IMG/VR virus record: IMGVR_UViG_3300044833_000300 | DNA: 16,161 nucleotides | Source: a virus | Direction: 5' to 3' (one strand) | Shown: in pieces, positions 6,145 to 16,066 of the stretch | How the letters are laid out: each line of letters starts with the position of its first letter | How positions within the stretch are numbered: the first letter of the stretch is position 1 | Position numbers and translations under genes: made by a program | Notes under the pieces: model-generated | Database searches by the model: none | What the model saw: only the letters and a program-made list of their open reading frames with translations | Told to the model about the DNA's origin: nothing

Positions 6145-6397
6145 GCATTTCTGCCAATTCATCTTGGATTACGATGAGTTTTTCGGCCCGGTGGTCGCAT
6201 GGGACTTCAACGACCATCGCGTCGAATGCTGCGGCAAACCCGCACGTTCTAGGTACGAACGGGACTGGATGGGCAGATACAGCAGGGCACTGGCCCGGCG
6301 CAACAAAACGCCCATGGCGTGGCTCTGCGACGAACATTACGACGAACTGTTATCCGAACACGAGAAAATACCGAAAGACCCCAATGAAACTGAATGA
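6116..6397 (+). CDS. hypothetical Cys/His-containing protein (HRVECCGKP...WLCDEHY), 93 aa
   Basis: Coding-like codon usage. Overlaps the previous gene by 29 nt and the helicase start by 14 nt. The start codon is uncertain. Confidence 0.45.
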   Translation: MRTASSTATEHFCQFILDYDEFFGPVVAWDFNDHRVECCGKPARSRYERDWMGRYSRALARRNKTPMAWLCDEHYDELLSEHEKIPKDPNETE

Positions 6398-8381
6398 AGA
6401 GCAGACAGCGGCCGTGCAGCATCCGCTAGACCAGCCCGCTTGTCTGATCGCCGGGGCGGGGTCGGGCAAGACCCGCGTCCTCACCGAGCGGGTGCGCTGG
6501 CTCATCGACAACGGGGTCCCTGCGGGCCGCATCTGCGCCCTGACGTTCACCAACAAGGCCGCCGGGGAGTTGATCCACCGCTTGGAACTGGACAGCAAGA
6601 AAATCGCGGACACGCCCCGTGTCTCGACCATCCACGCCTTGGCCCTCAGCGGCATCCGCAAGAATCCCCCGGCCTTCGGCCTGAAGGACCGGGTCACCCC
6701 GCTGGACGACTACGACCAGAAGCAGATGGTCAAGAAGATCATCGAGCGCCACAAGTTCGAGATCGACACCGCGGCCCTGATGTTCCGGCTGCTGGAGAAG
6801 ATTTCCTTCCACCGCGCCCGAGGCATCGGGTTCCACAAAGAGTACACCGACGACGTGCATGAACTGGCCCTGCGGAATCATGCCGGGTACCACGCCATGG
6901 ACGAGCAGGAGTTGGAGTTGTGGGAGGAGTTCGAGCGCGAGAAGAAAGACAACTCGGTGGTGGACTTCGACGACATGCTGCACCTCGTGGTGCGCCGCAT
7001 GCGCACCGACCCCAAGTGGCTGGCGTCCCTGCACAAGCAGTTCGACCACGTGCTGATGGACGAAGCGCAGGACACCAACCCCGTGCAGTGGGAGTTCATC
7101 AACGGGCTGCTGCACCCCGACAACCGCAACATGTACGTGGTGGGGGACATGTCACAGAGCATTTATGGCTTTTCGGGGGCGGTGCCCGAACTTCTTAAGA
7201 AATACAGCGAGAAGTGGCGGGGGCTCGTCCCCGCCCTGTACCGCATCGCCCGCAACCACCGCAGCGTGCCGGAGATCGTGGACTTCGCCAATCTCATCCA
7301 GAAGAAAATGACCCGCACCCTGCCGCTGAAGATGGAGTCGTGGCGGGGCAGCAACGACGAGCACGGCGATGTCCGGAAGCTGCTCGCGCCATCCGCCCAG
7401 CTTGTGGCCGCGAACATCGCCTTGGAGATACAGCGCGACGGGCGCAAGGACATCCCCTTCAAGGACAACGCCCTGCTGGTGCGCTCGGCCATCCAGATTC
7501 GCGACCTTGAGGGCGAATTGATCAAGCGCCGGATTCCCTACATCGTGCGCGGCGGCCGGGGGCTGCTGACCACCGAGGAGGTGCGGGACGTGCTGGCGTA
7601 CATGCGCCTTGCCGCGAACCACCAGGACTTCACCGCATTCATGCGGGCGGCGGGGGCTCCGCGCTGCGGCGTGGGGGACGTGGGGCTTGAGAAGCTGCGC
7701 CGACAGGCCATCGAGGAATTCGACGGGGACTTGATTTCGGCGGGCCGCAAGGTCGCCAAGCTCCACCCGCTGTGCGACATCATCGAGCACGTCTCCTTGT
7801 TCAAGGAAGCCCCGGTCGCCGCCGTGGAGAAGATCGTGGCGATGTCCAACTACAAGGAATACGTCCGGCAGAAGTACAAGAAGGAACCCGGCAAGGTGCA
7901 GGGCAAGCTGGAGAACATCGAACGCTTCGCCATGCTGGTGATCGTCTTGGTGCGGGACAACAACCTGACCCTCGACGACTTGATCTTCCAACTCACCTTG
8001 GACCGCCCCAAGGGGGACGAGGCAGAGGAGCGCGACGCCGTGCTGCGGGCCTTCGAGGAGGGGAAGATCGACGCCGCCGAGCGGGACGCCAAGCTGCAAG
8101 TCATCGACCAAGGCTCCGTCACCATCACCACCATCCATTCCGCCAAGGGATTGGAATGGCGGCGCGTCTACGTCACCAATCTGGTCGAAGGCTCGCTGCC
8201 CCACAAGTTCTCCCTCGGCTCCGAGGACGAGATCGAGGAGGAGCGGCGCTTGTTCTACGTGGCCTGCACCCGCGCGCGGGACCTGCTGGTGTGGTGCGTG
8301 CCGGAGAGGCAGCAATCCCCTGACGGCACGAGGCTTACGAGGCTCGTGCCCTCCAGGTTTCTCCTTGAAATCGGCGTGTGA
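6384..8381 (+). CDS. UvrD/PcrA/Rep-family superfamily-1 DNA helicase
   Basis: Start MKLNEEQTAAV (UvrD N-terminus LNxEQxxAV). Walker A AGAGSGKTRVL, motif Ia LTFTNKAAGEL, motif II DEAQD, motif III GDMSQSIYGFSGA, motif IV YRIARNHRS, motif V TIHSAKGLEW, motif VI EEERRLFYVACTRARDLL. The first 70 aa of the six-frame ORF 6174..8381 are an off-frame extension. Confidence 0.9.
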   Translation: MKLNEEQTAAVQHPLDQPACLIAGAGSGKTRVLTERVRWLIDNGVPAGRICALTFTNKAAGELIHRLELDSKKIADTPRVSTIHALALSGIRKNPPAFGLKDRVTPLDDYDQKQMVKKIIERHKFEIDTAALMFRLLEKISFHRARGIGFHKEYTDDVHELALRNHAGYHAMDEQELELWEEFEREKKDNSVVDFDDMLHLVVRRMRTDPKWLASLHKQFDHVLMDEAQDTNPVQWEFINGLLHPDNRNMYVVGDMSQSIYGFSGAVPELLKKYSEKWRGLVPALYRIARNHRSVPEIVDFANLIQKKMTRTLPLKMESWRGSNDEHGDVRKLLAPSAQLVAANIALEIQRDGRKDIPFKDNALLVRSAIQIRDLEGELIKRRIPYIVRGGRGLLTTEEVRDVLAYMRLAANHQDFTAFMRAAGAPRCGVGDVGLEKLRRQAIEEFDGDLISAGRKVAKLHPLCDIIEHVSLFKEAPVAAVEKIVAMSNYKEYVRQKYKKEPGKVQGKLENIERFAMLVIVLVRDNNLTLDDLIFQLTLDRPKGDEAEERDAVLRAFEEGKIDAAERDAKLQVIDQGSVTITTIHSAKGLEWRRVYVTNLVEGSLPHKFSLGSEDEIEEERRLFYVACTRARDLLVWCVPERQQSPDGTRLTRLVPSRFLLEIGV

Positions 8382-8420
8382 GTGTAGTATTATCGGCCAG
8401 AAACGGAGGCCTTCGCAACA

Positions 8421-8615
8421 GTGAAACACATCAGCGACGAGATGTATTCTGCGGCGGCAGGCATGAGTAACGTGTTGTTCAACGCCAAGCAAAACACCAT
8501 GATACCGGCCGACTGGCGGCAGAACTTCGAGAACGCCCAAAAGACGTGGGACGCCGCGGTGGACGCTCACCGCGAAAAGCTCGCAACTGTGCGCAAATCG
8601 AAAGGCAAAAAATAA
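8421..8615 (+). CDS. small hypothetical protein (64 aa, basic C-terminus)
   Basis: GTG start with GGAGG 11 nt upstream. The stop TAA overlaps the ATG of the next gene (TAATG). Confidence 0.45.
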   Translation: MKHISDEMYSAAAGMSNVLFNAKQNTMIPADWRQNFENAQKTWDAAVDAHREKLATVRKSKGKK

Positions 8616-9553
8616 TGCCGAATTACGGCGTAATCGTGGGGCGGTTCCAAGTGAACGACCTTCACGACGGGCACATGGAGTTGTTACGGCAAGTGCGCGC
8701 CCGCCACAACAGGGTCATCGTGTTCGTGGGCACGAGCCCCGGCGGCTTGAGCCGCAAGAATCCATTGGACTTCACCACCCGCAGGGCGATGATCCAAGCC
8801 AAGTTCCCCGAATTCAACGTGCTGCTGCTGGGCGACAGGCGCACGGACGAGGAGTGGAGCCGCGACTTGGACGCCCAGATATCCTCGGTGATCGGGGCGG
8901 GCTCGGCCACTTTGTACGGCAGCCGGGACTCGTTCATCCCGCACTACAAGGGACGCCTCATCCCGGTGGAACTGGTTTTGCCCATCGGCACCGAGAGAGT
9001 CAGCGGCACGGACATCCGGGAGCAGTTCTCCGACAACGTCATTGAGTCCGCAGAGTTCCGCGCCGGGTTGATCTACGCGGCCAACCAACGTTGGCCCGAG
9101 ACCCTGCCATGCGTAGACATCGCCATATTCAACGACGACGAGACGGAGCTTCTTTTGGCCCAGAAGGAGGGCGAGAATCTGTGGCGCTTCGTCGGCGGGC
9201 ATTACGAGCGCCTGAAGCACTCCTCGTTCGAAGCCGCGGCCCGGGCCGAGACTTTGGAGGAAACCGGGCTGGACCTCGTAACCTTGGAGTACGTGGGTTC
9301 CTGCCCCATCGACGATTGGCGTTACGCGGACAGCCCGGACCACGGGATCGCCACGGCTTTCTTTCGCGGTCGCGCCATGACCAAGCAAGCGCGGGCGCAG
9401 GACGACATCAAGAGCGTCAAATGGTTCGCAATCGAACGCCTGAGGGCGTACGACTTTGTCCCCGAACATCGGGTATTATACGCACTGCTGCTGATGAGCA
9501 AAAAGGAGAAGCATGCAAACACTGCGGCTCAATCCACTGCTACAAACGGATAG
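8615..9553 (+). CDS. natV: bifunctional NMN adenylyltransferase (NadM type) / Nudix hydrolase, a NatV-like NAD+ salvage enzyme
   Basis: Starts MPNYGVIVGRFQVNDLHDGH, matching the archaeal/NadM NMNAT motif GxFxPxHxGH. The C-terminal half carries a Nudix box (GGHYE...FEAAARAETLEETGL). 312 aa. The first 23 residues of the six-frame ORF 8546 belong to the upstream frame. Confidence 0.8.
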   Translation: MPNYGVIVGRFQVNDLHDGHMELLRQVRARHNRVIVFVGTSPGGLSRKNPLDFTTRRAMIQAKFPEFNVLLLGDRRTDEEWSRDLDAQISSVIGAGSATLYGSRDSFIPHYKGRLIPVELVLPIGTERVSGTDIREQFSDNVIESAEFRAGLIYAANQRWPETLPCVDIAIFNDDETELLLAQKEGENLWRFVGGHYERLKHSSFEAAARAETLEETGLDLVTLEYVGSCPIDDWRYADSPDHGIATAFFRGRAMTKQARAQDDIKSVKWFAIERLRAYDFVPEHRVLYALLLMSKKEKHANTAAQSTATNG

Positions 9554-10955
9554 CTACAAGCTGTCCCACTGGTGGCAATACCCCCCGGACTCGCGCTTCG
9601 TGTATTCCTATTTGGAGTCCCGCGGCGGGTTCTTCAAGCACACCCAATTCTTCGGGGGGCAGCCCATCATCAAGACCAATTTCGTCGGCAAGGTGTTCAC
9701 GAAGGCCGACATCGACGAAGCCCGCGCTTTTTCCGCCCAGCACTTCGGGTCGGACGAGGTGTTCAACACCAAGGGCTGGACGCGCCTGCTGGAAAAGCAC
9801 GGCGGTATGCTGCCGCTGAAAATCCGGGCGGTGCCGGAGGGCACGGTGGTGCCGACACACAACGCCCTCATGACCATCCAGAACACCGACGAGGAATTCC
9901 CGTGGCTCACCAACTGGGCCGAGACCATCTTGCTGCAAGTATGGTACCCCACCACGGTCGCCACGCTGTCCTTCGAGATCAAGCAAGCCATCGGCAAGGA
10001 CCTCGTGCGCACGGGCGACCCCGCCCTCCTGCCCTTCAAGCTGCACGACTTCGGCTACCGGGGCGTCAGTTCCCGCGAGACCGCGGCGCTGGGCGCGGCG
10101 GCCCATCTGGTGAACTTCAAGGGCACCGACACGATTGCGGGCATCCAGTTGCTGCAACAGTTTTACGGCGCGAAGGAGATGCCGGGGTTCGGCATCCCGG
10201 CGATGGAGCACAGCACCGTCACGTCGTGGGGGCAGGATCATGAGATGGACGCCTACCGCAACATGATCAAGCGGAGCCCCACGCCCGTGATCGCCTGCGT
10301 GGTGGACAGCTACGACACGCACAACGCCGTGGAGAACATCTTCGGCGGGGAGTTGCGGGAGGAAATCCTCCGGCGCAACGGCACCGTGGTGCTGCGCCCC
10401 GATTCCGGCGACCCCACGGTGGTGATCGAGGACATCTTCAACTCGCTAGCCGACAGGTTCGGATTCGAGGCCAACACCAAGGGCTGGAAAGTGTTGTCAA
10501 AGCAAGTCCGAGTGATTCAGGGCGACGGCGTGAACTACCAGAATATTTTGCGCATCAATTCTCACTTGATCCGCAACGGCTGGTCGATGGACAACTGGAG
10601 CTACGGCATGGGCGGGGCCTTGCTCCAGCAACAGAACCGCGACACCATGCGCTTCGCCCTGAAGTGCTCCGCGATCAACCGGGCCGGGACGTGGCACAAC
10701 GTCATCAAGACCCCCAAGACCGACATGACCAAGGCGTCCATGGGCGGGCGCTTCAACCTCTTCGACCACGGCGGCAAGGCCGGGCACCGCTACCACACGG
10801 TGGAGAGCACGGAGGAGGACGCCTACGAGAACCTCCTGAAGACCGTGCTGCTCGACGGGGAACTCAAGATAGACTACACGCTGGACCAAGTCCGGGCGAC
10901 GGCCGCCAGCCACGACCGCTATGTGGCGGAAGCGGAGTCCGCTGCACACGCATGA
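9513..10955 (+). CDS. nadV: nicotinamide phosphoribosyltransferase (NAMPT/NadV)
   Basis: 480 aa. The N-terminus LLQTDSYKLSHWWQYPPDSRFVYSYLESRGG closely matches NAMPT ([30 protein letters not shown]). AAAGGAGAA SD. Overlaps natV by 41 nt. Confidence 0.9.
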   Translation: MQTLRLNPLLQTDSYKLSHWWQYPPDSRFVYSYLESRGGFFKHTQFFGGQPIIKTNFVGKVFTKADIDEARAFSAQHFGSDEVFNTKGWTRLLEKHGGMLPLKIRAVPEGTVVPTHNALMTIQNTDEEFPWLTNWAETILLQVWYPTTVATLSFEIKQAIGKDLVRTGDPALLPFKLHDFGYRGVSSRETAALGAAAHLVNFKGTDTIAGIQLLQQFYGAKEMPGFGIPAMEHSTVTSWGQDHEMDAYRNMIKRSPTPVIACVVDSYDTHNAVENIFGGELREEILRRNGTVVLRPDSGDPTVVIEDIFNSLADRFGFEANTKGWKVLSKQVRVIQGDGVNYQNILRINSHLIRNGWSMDNWSYGMGGALLQQQNRDTMRFALKCSAINRAGTWHNVIKTPKTDMTKASMGGRFNLFDHGGKAGHRYHTVESTEEDAYENLLKTVLLDGELKIDYTLDQVRATAASHDRYVAEAESAAHA

Positions 10956-11191
10956 GAATGACTGTCATAGTGCGCATCGCCGAGGACGACGAGAGAGTGA
11001 CCATCGCCCAAGGAAGGCTCGTGAGGACGCTTGAGGAATTGCCGCCGTCCACGACGATTTGCATGAGTTCCATAGCCGACCGTGTCTGGGAGCAAATCTT
11101 GAAGGATTCACCCGTCGCCGTTGCGGACCCGGTCGTGGATGAGCAAGAGTACAGCTCTACTGTGGAGGAGGAGTCCGTGGGGACGAAATGA
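10952..11191 (+). CDS. small acidic hypothetical protein (79 aa)
   Basis: ATG overlaps the nadV stop as ATGA. The long upstream six-frame extension (10664..) is the off-frame shadow of nadV. Confidence 0.5.
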   Translation: MRMTVIVRIAEDDERVTIAQGRLVRTLEELPPSTTICMSSIADRVWEQILKDSPVAVADPVVDEQEYSSTVEEESVGTK

Positions 11192-11508
11192 CCGTTGAGG
11201 GAGCGGGCTCCATCTACTTGACGTTCGGGATGCTTTGCAGCATGCCGTTTTTCTTCAGCTACGTGTACGGCAGGAAGCTAGGCATGCCCGTGATCGCCAA
11301 CTGCTTCGGGGTGCTGATCTTTTCCCTCGTGGCGGCAGGCGACTGCGGGGTATTGGCGCTGGCGCACAACCGCAGGGCCGTGACGCTCGTGGGGCCGATG
11401 CTGGCTGCTTCTTGCGCGGGGTGTTATTATTTCGGGCGGCAACTGTTGAAGGCGCTGCCAAAAACCAACATACAAGAAAGGGAAAGCCATGGCAACAGAG
11501 CTAATTAG
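11188..11508 (+). CDS. small integral membrane protein (2-3 predicted TM helices)
   Basis: ATGA overlap with the upstream stop. Hydrophobic segments FGMLCSMPFFFSYVY, VIANCFGVLIFSLVAAG, LVGPMLAASCAGCYYF. Confidence 0.5.
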   Translation: MTVEGAGSIYLTFGMLCSMPFFFSYVYGRKLGMPVIANCFGVLIFSLVAAGDCGVLALAHNRRAVTLVGPMLAASCAGCYYFGRQLLKALPKTNIQERESHGNRAN

Positions 11509-12019
11509 GAGACCGATCAAAACACAGGGGCTGAAGTCCCTGACCACCGAAGTGATGCAGGAAGTCAAGGAGGTTCTGGGCTACGACGTGCTGATGGAGG
11601 AAGTGGATGTCATCCGCCGGGTGGCCGAGATATTCAAAAAGTTGGAGATCGAGCCGCTGGAGACGAAGCGCGTCGAGCTATACAAGAAGGAAATGGCGGC
11701 GTCCGTCACCTCGAAGAGCAAGAATTACAGTTGGAATGGCGATGGGCGGAGGTACTACCGCACCGTCAAGGGCGTGTGGAGGCAGAAGACGCTGCGCGGC
11801 TACACCAAAGCGATCCCGCCGTTCGCCTTGCTGCGGGCCAACGAGATTCAAAAAGCCACGCAGGCGGCTGGCATCGAGGGCGCGTTCTTCGTCGAGGAAT
11901 TGACCAGGAAGCACAGCACCGTCATCATCGACCCCTTCATGGTCTTCGTCGTCGCCGGGAAGAAATTCTACACGGACGTGTGGGACGAGCCGAAGTTCGA
12001 GGGCCGCCGGACAGTCTAA
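11489..12019 (+). CDS. hypothetical protein (176 aa)
   Basis: ATG with a GGGAAAG SD-like sequence. Clear GC3 codon bias. Overlaps the previous gene by 20 nt. Confidence 0.6.
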   Translation: MATELIRRPIKTQGLKSLTTEVMQEVKEVLGYDVLMEEVDVIRRVAEIFKKLEIEPLETKRVELYKKEMAASVTSKSKNYSWNGDGRRYYRTVKGVWRQKTLRGYTKAIPPFALLRANEIQKATQAAGIEGAFFVEELTRKHSTVIIDPFMVFVVAGKKFYTDVWDEPKFEGRRTV

Positions 12020-12022
12020 AAG

Positions 12023-12232
12023 ATGAAGCCGATCCCCATCAGCGCAGCCAAACAGATCGCCGAGAAGTACGGCTACGACCAAGTCGTGGTCATAGCGCGC
12101 GCGGTGGGCGACAACCGCGGCGAGCACGTCACGACCTACGGCAAGGACAAACTGAATTGCGGCGTGGCGGCGCGGATCGGGGACTTCTTGAAGTTCAAGG
12201 TGATGGGCTGGGTCGCCGACAATGACTCTTGA
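12023..12232 (+). CDS. small hypothetical protein (69 aa)
   Basis: ATG 3 nt after the upstream stop. Coding-like composition. Weak SD. Confidence 0.45.
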   Translation: MKPIPISAAKQIAEKYGYDQVVVIARAVGDNRGEHVTTYGKDKLNCGVAARIGDFLKFKVMGWVADNDS

Positions 12233-12458
12233 CGCTGTCTTGGAGTGGATTCAAGCCAATCATGTCCCGGCGTTTTTTGCGGGCTGGTTCATTTTGCTGG
12301 CCCTCGGGATCGTGCTCAATTTCTTCCACCAGATAGCGAAGCAAGCGGTTTACGCGATCCGCGGCGTCCCGGCTCAGATCACGGTGAGTTGCCCCTGCTC
12401 CTGCCACACCAAGAAAGAGGACGAAGATTCGGAAGACGACGTGATAGAGGAGGAGTAA
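12222..12458 (+). CDS. small single-pass membrane protein with an acidic C-terminal tail (78 aa)
   Basis: ATG overlaps the upstream gene end by 11 nt. TM segment AFFAGWFILLALGIVLNFF. C-terminal EDEDSEDDVIEEE. Confidence 0.5.
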   Translation: MTLDAVLEWIQANHVPAFFAGWFILLALGIVLNFFHQIAKQAVYAIRGVPAQITVSCPCSCHTKKEDEDSEDDVIEEE

Positions 12459-12459
12459 A

Positions 12460-12711
12460 ATGGTACCTGCGGCGATGTTCATTGAATCGGGGGCGGCTTC
12501 CCTGTTGAAGATGAGCGAAGAAGTCAAGAAGGACCATCTAGCGGAATTGCATGAGTTCGGCCCTGCGGGTGTCGCGGTGCTGGGCGTGGCGGGCGGGTTG
12601 TCCCACGAATTGCAAACCGGATATTTGTTGGGGTTGGAGACCGCCCGGGCCATCCTTGCCACCGATGGAATACTAGTGCAGAAGGCGATTGACCCGAAGG
12701 ACGTTTTGTAG
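12460..12711 (+). CDS. small hypothetical protein (83 aa)
   Basis: ATG with a GAGGAGGAG SD. The start lies 1 nt after the upstream TAA. Confidence 0.55.
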   Translation: MVPAAMFIESGAASLLKMSEEVKKDHLAELHEFGPAGVAVLGVAGGLSHELQTGYLLGLETARAILATDGILVQKAIDPKDVL

Positions 12712-12713
12712 CC

Positions 12714-12935
12714 GTGCTCAGGGGAATGACGGCGGAAGAAACCAAGCTTACGGACCAGCGGGTGCGGGAATTGTACACGAGCAAGTGGACCATCGACAAC
12801 CTCACCGCTTCGTTGATGGATTCCTCAGTCGGCGGCCTGGGGCTGCATGAAGACCCGGCCCGGGCCAAAGCCGCCAAGGTCGTCGATTGGCTGAACCACA
12901 TTGTGGGCATAGCAGTACCACAGACCCGCGAATAA
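12714..12935 (+). CDS. small hypothetical protein (69-73 aa)
   Basis: GTG at 12714 or ATG at 12726 (MTAEETKL). Coding-like. Start uncertain. Confidence 0.45.
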   Translation: MLRGMTAEETKLTDQRVRELYTSKWTIDNLTASLMDSSVGGLGLHEDPARAKAAKVVDWLNHIVGIAVPQTRE

Positions 12936-12951
12936 AATAGTATTAAAGGGG

Positions 12952-13713
12952 ATGAACAATCCCTTTTGGCAAGAACTGCGCAGCACCGTCATGCTCCGTG
13001 GCACGGACTGGCGGGAAGTGGTGGAAAGCCTCCCCGGCAGGATAGACGCCTCGGAAGTGAAGTCCATGCTCCAGTCCCCCCACCAGTTGACCCATTGCAA
13101 CATGCAGGGCGTGGCTTATCTGGCGGGCTACCCCGTGTACGCCTCCCCCGACCCCGAGATTCTCGGGGAGCACGTCACCCTCGACATGACGGCCGAGCAC
13201 GTCACGCTGCAATGGCTGTACCAATTTTTCATCATCGAGGGGCTGATGACGGCCATGCACGACACCAACAAGCTCGCCCCCATCGCCGAATGGCCGCCGA
13301 TGATCCTCGACATGCTGGCGCGCAGCCTGCAAACGATGGTGTACATGGCGGCGCTGCTGACCCTCATGGAAGAGGGGGCGCTGGACGCCTGCGACGGGCC
13401 GGTCACGCCGCCAAATTTCCTCGGGACGCAAGACGCCGTCCGCCACAGGGTGGGGAAGACCACGGAGAACCTGTTTTCGAAGGCGCAGGACTACGGGGAG
13501 AGCTTCCGCCGCCACGGGCTGGCGGGGTTGATTCCCAGGCTGTGGGACAAAGTCGCCCGGATCGCCCAGCTTAAATCCCAGGATCGTGCCCCGAACTTCG
13601 AGTCCATGCAGGATTCGGCCCGCGACCTATTGGGCTACACGGCCATCGCATGGACCTTGGTGCTGGAAGTCCCGGCGGCCAACAACATTCACAAGGTGGA
13701 AGTCAACCGTTAA
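12952..13713 (+). CDS. hypothetical protein (253 aa), predominantly helical
   Basis: ATG with AAAGGGG immediately upstream and an AT-rich (TAAAAT) tract before it. Strong GC3 bias. No family recognised with confidence. Confidence 0.6.
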   Translation: MNNPFWQELRSTVMLRGTDWREVVESLPGRIDASEVKSMLQSPHQLTHCNMQGVAYLAGYPVYASPDPEILGEHVTLDMTAEHVTLQWLYQFFIIEGLMTAMHDTNKLAPIAEWPPMILDMLARSLQTMVYMAALLTLMEEGALDACDGPVTPPNFLGTQDAVRHRVGKTTENLFSKAQDYGESFRRHGLAGLIPRLWDKVARIAQLKSQDRAPNFESMQDSARDLLGYTAIAWTLVLEVPAANNIHKVEVNR

Positions 13714-15526: not shown

Positions 15527-16066
15527 ATGCATAAGAACCTCAAGAACCGGATTGGTCAAATATTCGGCAGATTGACTGTCGTCGCGTACGCGGGGAAGAG
15601 ACCTGTTGGCAAACAAGCTGCAAATTTTTGGTTGTGCCGTTGTGTCTGCGGCTCCGAAGTTGAAGTGCACGGCGGCAATCTAGTTACTGGAAATACCCAA
15701 AGCTGTGGATGCCTCTGGCACGAAACGCCTCGCAATCAAAAACGTCCTTTTGAAAATGCTTTTAACTCTCTGCTTTGGCAAGCTAAGCATCGCGGAATAG
15801 AAGTAAACCTTTCCTATGCGGAGTTTCTGAACTTCACAAAATCCCCAACGTGTCACTATTGTGGTGAAACCGTAACGTGGAAACCGTACGGATCGCAGGC
15901 ATCCCAACTAGATCGCATAGACAACACTCTTGGATATTCCGTGTCCAATTGCGTGACCGCGTGTGCGACATGCAACCGGATGAAAAACGTTTTGGGATAT
16001 CGAGCTTTCATCTCGCAATGTAAAAAAGTCGCTCTTCAACACCGGGAGGCGGCCCATGGCGCATAG
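15527..16066 (+). CDS. HNH-family (homing-type) endonuclease
   Basis: The N-terminal GRLTVVAYAGKR...FWLCRCVCGSEVEVHGGNLVTGNTQSCGC is typical of phage HNH endonucleases. The C-terminal QLDRIDNTLGYSVSNCVTACATCNRMKN is an HNH motif with zinc-binding Cys pairs. GC is about 47% against about 62% for flanking genes. Confidence 0.8.
   Translation: MHKNLKNRIGQIFGRLTVVAYAGKRPVGKQAANFWLCRCVCGSEVEVHGGNLVTGNTQSCGCLWHETPRNQKRPFENAFNSLLWQAKHRGIEVNLSYAEFLNFTKSPTCHYCGETVTWKPYGSQASQLDRIDNTLGYSVSNCVTACATCNRMKNVLGYRAFISQCKKVALQHREAAHGA

Follow-up and report, generated by a model that had tools for sequence, protein, structure and literature searches.

A 16,161-nt stretch of DNA (one strand of the IMG/VR record IMGVR_UViG_3300044833_000300, approximately 60% G+C, referred to here as the window) carries an overlapping gene pair, nadM-like and nadV, which in our estimation has a probability of roughly 80% of being a two-gene nicotinamide salvage module of a huge (jumbo-class) phage. 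The module matches the nadM-nadV "salvage II" operons of bacteria and, among phages, NAD+ reconstitution pathway 2 (NARP2). NadV, a nicotinamide phosphoribosyltransferase (NAMPT), would join nicotinamide to host-made phosphoribosyl pyrophosphate (PRPP), giving nicotinamide mononucleotide (NMN), and the N-terminal domain of the nadM-like protein, a putative NMN adenylyltransferase (NMNAT), would convert NMN and ATP to NAD+. The Nudix domain of the latter protein, which has kept its metal-binding glutamate triad, most likely hydrolyses an ADP-ribose-like dinucleotide as do the NadM-Nudix enzymes. In the infected cell NAD+ would be raised or restored, feeding phage metabolism, and by analogy with the NARP2 of vibriophage KVP40 those host defences which destroy NAD+ might be blunted.

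The pathway is already known. What is new is a divergent NadM-like subfamily common to huge phages and to the NrtR-linked operons that we examined in Bacteroidota, together with the two-residue insertion which this subfamily shows in its ATP-binding loop and the specific non-canonical Nudix box of the clade to which the window belongs. Mainly, the finding adds very large, high-GC phages of an uncultured lineage to those which carry this known counter-defence and metabolic module.

An earlier, sequence-only reading of this DNA had placed a NAMPT gene and an NMNAT/Nudix gene at 8615–10955, overlapping by 41 nt within a long coupled operon. These coordinates are exact (Table 1), and an independent public gene call on an identical contig of 7.9 kb agrees with them as to both genes, of 312 and 480 aa, and as to their overlap. 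The operon is also there, as eleven plus-strand genes in series (8421–13713), the junctions of which range from the 41-nt overlap to a 16-nt gap. The core of that reading, a NARP2-type salvage pair, is supported by the predicted domains, fold and motifs of the two products.

The NAMPT homolog

The nadV product scores 569.4 bits against the NCBIfam equivalog PRK09198 (cut-off 405) and, in Pfam, 100.3 bits against NAMPT_N (cut-off 25) and 177.1 bits against NAPRTase (cut-off 20.8). It also matches PHROG 448, "nicotinamide phosphoribosyl transferase" [496 bits], and aligns end to end with solved NAMPTs of bacterial [457 bits, 7yqo] and mammalian [421–426 bits] origin. It is closer to these cellular enzymes than to any NAMPT in the collection of phages which was searched, the best of those being 48% identical. 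All six active-site residues compared (mouse 2gvl numbering) are identical, F193, R196, D219, H247, R311 and D313 corresponding to F180, R183, D206, H233, R295 and D297. H247 is the histidine which is autophosphorylated in mammalian NAMPT; this residue and D219 were the two on which the earlier assignment had been staked, and both equivalents are present. As far as sequence comparison goes, membership of NadV in the NAMPT family is established.

The NadM-like partner

Two Pfam domains were found in the nadM-like protein, CTP_transf_like [31.2 bits, cut-off 21, residues 7–97] and NUDIX [50.7 bits, cut-off 21.1, residues 165–291]; all four Pfam domains of the pair are over their cut-offs. Single-sequence comparisons gave E-values of 1.5e-4 to the NadM-Nudix structure 2qjt and 2e-3 to 2qjo, while a profile of 30 homologs matches 2qjt over both domains [1.5e-14], 2qjo [4e-9] and the archaeal NMNAT 1f9a. 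The AF2 model (mean pLDDT 86.9) was compared at full length with the PDB using Foldseek, and its top matches are the solved bacterial NadM-Nudix enzymes 2qjt, 2qjo and 2r5w [3e-16 to 4e-14] at 16–18% identity. The modelled protein thus shows the two-domain fold of NadM-Nudix enzymes, although its sequence is related only remotely to that of KVP40 NatV.

That distance bears upon the label NatV, which the earlier reading had given to this protein. The two-domain architecture is indeed the same, and a family-level comparison with hhalign covers both domains of KVP40 NatV [97.4% probability, 277 columns]. Against the label, a BLASTP alignment of the 312-aa protein with the 341-aa NatV reaches 24% identity over the N-terminal 163 residues with no match in the Nudix half, the strict Nudix box GX5EX7REUXEE of NatV is absent, and all nine NCBIfam NadM-Nudix models of the PRK05379 equivalogs, with cut-offs of 350–450 bits, score far below threshold [best NF003787, 45.4 bits versus 449]. 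Curated models miss this divergent NMNAT/Nudix subfamily. Database homologs number 1,275 at E ≤ 1e-3, the best of them on contigs of 240–894 kb. A tblastn search with the nadM-like protein at the same threshold matched 40 phage records; the 30 listed do not include KVP40, nor does Vibrio occur among the organisms named, a tally which leaves out three organism names. Since no KVP40 NatV was among the matches listed, surveys seeded with that protein may undercount NARP2 in huge phages.

Motif conservation was followed in 30 close homologs (alignment A1) and then in 141 distinct viral and bacterial relatives, with column counts over 138 relatives. The H-x-G-H motif of NMNATs, on which the sequence-only reading had also relied, is present as H17-D-G-H20 and is conserved across the family. 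R10, Q12, L16, H17 and H20 are invariant in the close homologs; among the 138 relatives R10 and L16 remain invariant, H17 is replaced by Thr in seven (His in 131) and H20 by Gln in three (His in 135). The Arg which ends the second nucleotidyltransferase signature, R135, is found in every one of the 138, and this SGTDIR segment aligns with ISATDFR of KVP40 NatV and NATEFR of 2qjt. The NMNAT half is, to judge from these residues, very probably active.

Pairing of the two genes

We compared 80 loci from IMG/VR and 80 from a collection holding one genome per species, each of which was searched for NAMPT by tblastn. Of the 80 viral loci, 79 have a NAMPT gene downstream in the same orientation, and so do 74 of those 76 bacterial loci in which at least 1.5 kb of room is left. 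The pairing is near-obligate and far beyond chance. NadV has been reported from ~33% of jumbo phages, and from all those phages which encode NadM (PMC9503650); "NAD-salvage islands" of NMNAT-Nudix and NAMPT genes are known in Flavobacterium jumbophages (PMC13573597), and the literature puts NARP2 in ~1% of sequenced phages.

A Nampt-clade NAMPT with an Nmnat homolog is what marks NARP2, and the two are adjacent in the window, the phage origin being drawn from its relatives. KVP40, cited as the precedent in the earlier reading, has the same enzyme pair, that is, a phage-encoded NAMPT and a two-domain NMNAT/Nudix protein, and the same predicted chemistry. The likeness does not extend to gene adjacency: natV of KVP40 has no nadV within 1.5 kb, whereas in the window the genes adjoin and overlap, and adjacency is the rule among the loci compared. 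It is by pairing with an NMNAT that the Nampt/NARP2 clade is set apart from that of Namat (10.1101/2024.02.11.579819). NARP1, composed of Adps and Namat, resembles the present pair in having a NAMPT-family homolog, Namat, and in ending with NAD+. It differs in needing the Prs-like Adps and in using ADPR-pyrophosphate (ADPR being ADP-ribose), whereas NadV is an equivalog-level NAMPT paired with an NMNAT. An assignment to NARP1 was ruled out, no Prs- or Adps-like gene having been found in the scanned ORFs of the window. One statement of the sequence-only reading has to be withdrawn, namely that ADP-ribose would serve as a pyrophosphate source: PRPP starts NARP2 (10.1101/2024.02.11.579819; 10.64898/2026.01.28.702374), and the conversion of ADPR to ADPR-pyrophosphate by Adps is NARP1 chemistry (10.1101/2024.02.11.579819).

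Bacterial matches to the nadM-like protein are found in many chromosomes at 39–49% identity. Many of these belong to Bacteroidota (Chitinophaga, Mucilaginibacter, Arcicella, Marivirga, Cytophagales; 39–46%), several being on complete chromosomes. In the two Bacteroidota loci examined, from Mucilaginibacter and Chitinophaga, a gene for NrtR (NUDIX plus NrtR_WHD) lies directly upstream of the nadM-like gene and nadV lies downstream; in the Mucilaginibacter locus prs follows nadV. In other bacteria NrtR, a repressor which responds to ADPR, controls salvage operons of the types nadM-nadV and prs-nadV (PMC2330246). This neighbourhood provides independent evidence, from context, for the subfamily as the NMNAT which serves nicotinamide "salvage II". 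The Mucilaginibacter nadM-like gene has NUDIX as its sole Pfam match, and annotation may in this way reduce genes of the kind to plain Nudix hydrolases.

The window pair shares with the bacterial salvage II operons, as exemplified by Synechocystis slr0787 and Francisella NadM, both the pair itself and the two-domain fold, and its order, nadM then nadV, is that of Synechocystis. Unlike them it lacks nrtR and prs, as do the phage copies; NrtR_WHD was found in no window ORF scanned nor in the called genes of four related phage-like loci (L001–L004).

Alternative interpretations

A number of observations weigh against the module as drawn above. NARP2 makes NAD+ regardless of whether a defence is active, so that a purely metabolic role fits equally well. 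The NMNAT-like domain is highly divergent, with its Pfam match of 31 bits and with most homologs below a precomputed Pfam hit. Its ATP-binding loop is two residues longer than those of 2qjt, 2qjo and KVP40 NatV, an insertion which runs through the subfamily (GRFQ-VNDL-HDGH here, ARFQ-TPYL-HEGH in Bacteroidota, as against GRF[QR]-PF-HxGH in NadM and NatV), and the AF2 model has a pLDDT of only ~76 over this stretch. No Pribosyltran or Prs domain was found in the 20 neighbouring window ORFs scanned, and since prs is not encoded in the window PRPP must be supplied by the host. A NadM-type Nudix domain yields AMP and ribose-5-phosphate, and Prs is still needed to reach PRPP. In the Nudix box of the window protein Ala occupies the canonical Arg position, with Arg one residue earlier, and the Glu of GX5E is missing. 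Just past this box the profile alignment shows the family to be four residues shorter than 2qjt, in which the stretch DRSVRGR, from the ADP-ribose-contacting loop of NadM-Nudix enzymes (D-x-P-x-R-S-x-R-G-R type), is left with no counterpart. Because of the altered box and the missing stretch, ADPR pyrophosphatase activity of this Nudix domain appears doubtful.

The alternative which fares best retains the biochemistry and assigns the benefit to metabolic supply, the pair boosting NAD+ for the long and demanding infection cycle of a huge phage rather than countering a defence. We regard this as a serious contender, at somewhat less than even odds. The KVP40 pair of Nampt and Nmnat raises NAD+ in defended and undefended cells alike, and both type I Thoeris and DSR2 are cancelled by it (10.1101/2024.02.11.579819); KVP40 NARP2 also cancels aRES (10.64898/2026.01.28.702374). 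Overproduction of NAD+ where no defence is present speaks for supply and is costly or toxic, the metabolic cost arising because the pathway draws on PRPP. The same pair forms an ordinary NrtR-linked housekeeping operon in Bacteroidota, NAD-network genes scale with phage genome size (PMC9503650), and the neighbours of the pair in the window are genes of replication and nucleotide metabolism (UvrD, HNH, DUF1599) rather than known anti-defence genes. On the other side stand the measurable cancellation of three defences by the KVP40 genes and the loss of the NrtR regulator from phages, in which the two enzymes alone are kept. The two benefits are compatible and need not exclude one another. A counter-defence role is, by analogy with the KVP40 experiments, plausible. 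The list given in the sequence-only reading (Thoeris, DSR, SIR2-HerA and SEFIR) is the one reported for NARP1 (10.1101/2024.02.11.579819); for NARP2, rescue has been reported from type I Thoeris, DSR2 and aRES.

A second alternative concerns the Nudix domain, which in this clade may no longer be an ADP-ribose pyrophosphatase. Its substrate might be a different dinucleotide, be it NAD(H), NAD-capped RNA or an immune signal derived from ADPR, or it might be a regulatory domain which binds a ligand, as the Nudix domain of NrtR does; the NMNAT half alone would then contribute to NAD+ synthesis. This we consider rather unlikely, though well short of negligible. The canonical box, GX5EX7REUXEEXGU, is not matched by the nadM-like protein, and the strict core GX5EX7REUXEE, absent here, occurs in KVP40 NatV and Aeromonas phage Ah1. 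Relative to the textbook pattern and to the bacterial NadM-Nudix enzymes the box of the subfamily is mostly one residue longer, the pattern G-x5-[DE]-x8-R-E-x-x-E-E being found in 89 of the 141 sequences, and the clade of the window has in addition lost the canonical Arg. RExxEE is present in 118 sequences and missing in 23. Nearly all of the latter are viral and at least 47% identical to the window protein; they display [RK]-x-E-x-x-E-E, with a basic residue just ahead of a variable Arg position, and a non-acidic residue at the GX5E position. Also among the 23 are three more distant viral sequences in which that basic residue is missing. An invariant D234-W235-R236 stands in the family where 2qjt has DRSVRGR, and domain-level fold matches include NudC, NUDT12 and the ADPR-binding Nudix domain of NrtR.

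Opposed to this are the best full-length structural matches, which are NadM-Nudix ADPR pyrophosphatases, a Pfam NUDIX score well over its cut-off, and above all the glutamates E212, E215 and E216, which are invariant in 138 of 138 relatives. The E-x-x-E-E of the Nudix helix binds the catalytic metal, and non-catalytic domains of the NrtR type usually lose these residues. The invariance of the triad argues for retained catalysis; the Nudix half probably remains a metal-dependent hydrolase, which may act upon ADPR or a related dinucleotide.

A bolder version, to which we give little credence, is that the Nudix half has been re-tooled in this clade, as hinted at by the shifted Arg, the loss of Glu from the GX5E position and the invariant D-W-R in place of DRSVRGR. 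Rather than recycle ADP-ribose it would then degrade some other NAD-derived molecule, or sense ADPR so as to switch on the NMNAT domain; substrates may include an ADPR-based immune signal of the Thoeris gcADPR type or a non-canonical cleavage product such as ADPR-1''-phosphate. If this were true, the rebuilding of NAD+ and interference with NAD-based immune signals would be combined in a single protein. Biochemically, the altered box of this clade poses a question which is concrete and cheap.

Quite improbable, in our view, is a third alternative in which the N-terminal nucleotidyltransferase domain acts not on NMN but on, for example, NaMN, FMN or a sugar phosphate; the pair alone would then not complete NAD+ synthesis. 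The weak CTP_transf_like match, the loop insertion missing from the aligned NadM-type comparators, and the scores far under cut-off for all NCBIfam NMNAT models would fit such a view. However, the nearest solved relatives by profile and by fold are NMNATs of the NadM or archaeal type (2qjt, 2qjo, 1f9a), and the segment D74-x3-D78-x2-W81, the Trp of which is invariant in the 30 close homologs, aligns with its counterpart in 2qjt, 2qjo and KVP40 NatV. The near-obligate partnership with NAMPT, the product of which is NMN, and the nrtR gene upstream in the two bacterial loci also point to NMN.

Probable phage origin

We assign the window to a huge (jumbo-class) phage because of its IMG/VR relatives, the metagenomic huge-phage records of the LR series, the cultured phage Tunturi_5, and its own tRNA array and gene style. 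The IMG/VR relatives lie on contigs of up to 463 kb. The order MVP-like / PP2C / UvrD / small ORF / nadM-like / nadV is shared by the closest relatives. The same divergent NadM-like subfamily is present, at 31–41% identity over more than 90% of the protein, in LR756500, LR756502, LR756504 and LR745206 [31–39%] and in the 309-kb Tunturiibacter phage Tunturi_5 [41%], the closest cultured phage. In Tunturi_5 a "cytidyltransferase" (gp218) is directly followed by a "nicotinamide phosphoribosyl transferase" (nampt, gp217), a few genes from the portal gene. Unlike the window genes these two are 117 nt apart rather than overlapping, and the Nudix box keeps the canonical R-E (CRE in locus L005). A megablast search of 8000–11500 against 50,697 phage records gave no match, so that the pair is without a close sequenced phage relative. 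Arrays of tRNA genes are typical of very large phages, and that of the window holds seven: Ile-GAT (two), Thr-CGT, Thr-GGT, Thr-TGT and Gln-TTG (two), ARAGORN and Rfam being in agreement.

A cellular source for the window, be it a piece of a bacterial chromosome or a mis-binned contig, would make the pair a host salvage operon. This might be argued from the many bacterial chromosomes which carry the gene family, but is most improbable, given that all matches of at least 50% identity come from viral contigs of IMG/VR or from very large, phage-like ones with MVP-like/PP2C/UvrD synteny, that Tunturi_5 carries the same pair, and that the window displays the seven-tRNA array, packed unidirectional genes mostly of unknown function, an HNH endonuclease and no NrtR.

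The best matches labelled as bacterial genomes [49% identity] are on two contigs of metagenome-assembled genomes (MAGs) of Terracidiphilus, 87 and 66 kb in length, which may be phage contigs. Together with Tunturi_5 and the G+C content of the window they hint at a host among the Acidobacteriota. One further PP2C / UvrD / nadM-like / nadV block (L003; JGI 3300035696, Ga0374055_0000025) is on a contig of 894 kb, a length which exceeds any published phage genome; it may be concatemeric or mis-assembled, or the element may indeed be larger.

Gene structure and neighbouring genes

All of the large ORFs in the window are on the plus strand, and the coordinates of its features are collected in Table 1.

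Table 1. Positions of the gene pair, its motifs and neighbouring features in the window, and of two bacterial loci with nrtR
Feature	Position	Strand	Description
tRNA array	133–982	+	seven genes
MVP-like protein	1050–3599	+	849 aa
PP2C-family phosphatase	4438–5229	+	
UvrD-type helicase	6174–8381	+	
Promoter-like site	8365–8393	+	TTGAAA-17-TATTAT; between UvrD stop (8381) and the 64-aa ORF leading into the pair
Small ORF, upstream	8421–8615	+	64 aa
nadM-like gene	8615–9553	+	312 aa; NMN adenylyltransferase-like domain, residues ~3–155; Nudix domain, ~160–295
ATP-binding loop	8639–8674	+	G9-R-F-Q-V-N-D-L-H17-D-G-H20; HxGH motif
Second nucleotidyltransferase signature	9002–9019	+	S130-G-T-D-I-R135; ISxTxxR type
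Nudix box, non-canonical	9194–9271	+	G194-G-H-Y-E-R-L-K-H-S-S-F-E206-A-A-A-R210-A211-E212-T-L-E215-E216-T-G-L
Shine-Dalgarno-like AAGGAG	9503–9508	+	4 nt 5' of the nadV ATG, inside the 3' end of nadM-like; read from sequence
Overlap of nadM-like and nadV	9513–9553	+	41 nt; C-terminal tail of nadM-like and first 13 codons of nadV
nadV	9513–10955	+	NAMPT, 480 aa
Small ORF, downstream	10952–11191	+	79 aa
DUF1599 protein	12952–13713	+	"nucleotide modification associated domain 1"
HNH endonuclease	15527–16066	+	PHROG 374
nrtR / nadM-like / nadV locus	L147 2945–7262		Mucilaginibacter sp., NZ_CP168503.1
nrtR / nadM-like / nadV locus	L135 3119–6318		Chitinophaga silvisoli

Because of the 41-nt overlap and the internal Shine-Dalgarno sequence before nadV, the arrangement suggests that the two proteins would be translated together from one transcript of a tightly packed gene block. 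The ATG of the nadM-like gene shares one base with the TAA stop (8613–8615) of the upstream 64-aa ORF; a GTG at 8546 would give a longer reading but is unnecessary. At the other end the nadV stop overlaps the ATG of the next gene at 10952 (ATGA). The overlap is 23 nt in relatives of the pair, and the C-terminal tails of the nadM-like proteins are not conserved among the 30 close homologs.

The promoter-like site is the best sigma-70-like match of the window (10 of 12 positions) and the sole one near the pair. Such sites are consensus matches only, eight having been found in the window where 3.8 were expected. Terminator-like sites are not enriched there (16 found versus 17 expected) and give no information on the ends of the operon. 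Rfam at gathering thresholds returned the seven tRNAs only, with no NAD+ riboswitch or other RNA element in the window.

The two small flanking ORFs were considered as members of the module and rejected, no homologs of either being found beside the pair in 165 related loci; the small ORFs which precede the pair in L001 and L002 are unrelated hydrophobic peptides.

The PP2C-family phosphatase and UvrD-type helicase genes are syntenic with the NAD pair in L001–L004, and no functional link between them and the pair was found. That the phosphatase might be one of the "phage phosphatases" which counter aRES is unsupported, those being Macro-domain (Poa1p-like) enzymes of NARP1 operons. The UvrD genes of L002, L003 and L004 code for ~1,240–1,257 aa with a faint intein-splicing match. 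Downstream of the pair, the DUF1599 protein [25 bits] is also encoded in L001, and the HNH endonuclease [86 bits] lies in the same gene block.

The MVP-like protein is a homolog of the eukaryotic Major Vault Protein [Pfam MVP_shoulder, 89 bits; Vault_3, 39 bits], which is unusual for a huge phage, and has no PHROG match. A protein of 69% identity occupies the same position in the 454-kb contig L001. Residues 464–736 match the solved MVP chains 4hl8 and 2qzv [2e-19] and are followed by a long, charged, helix-like C-terminus.

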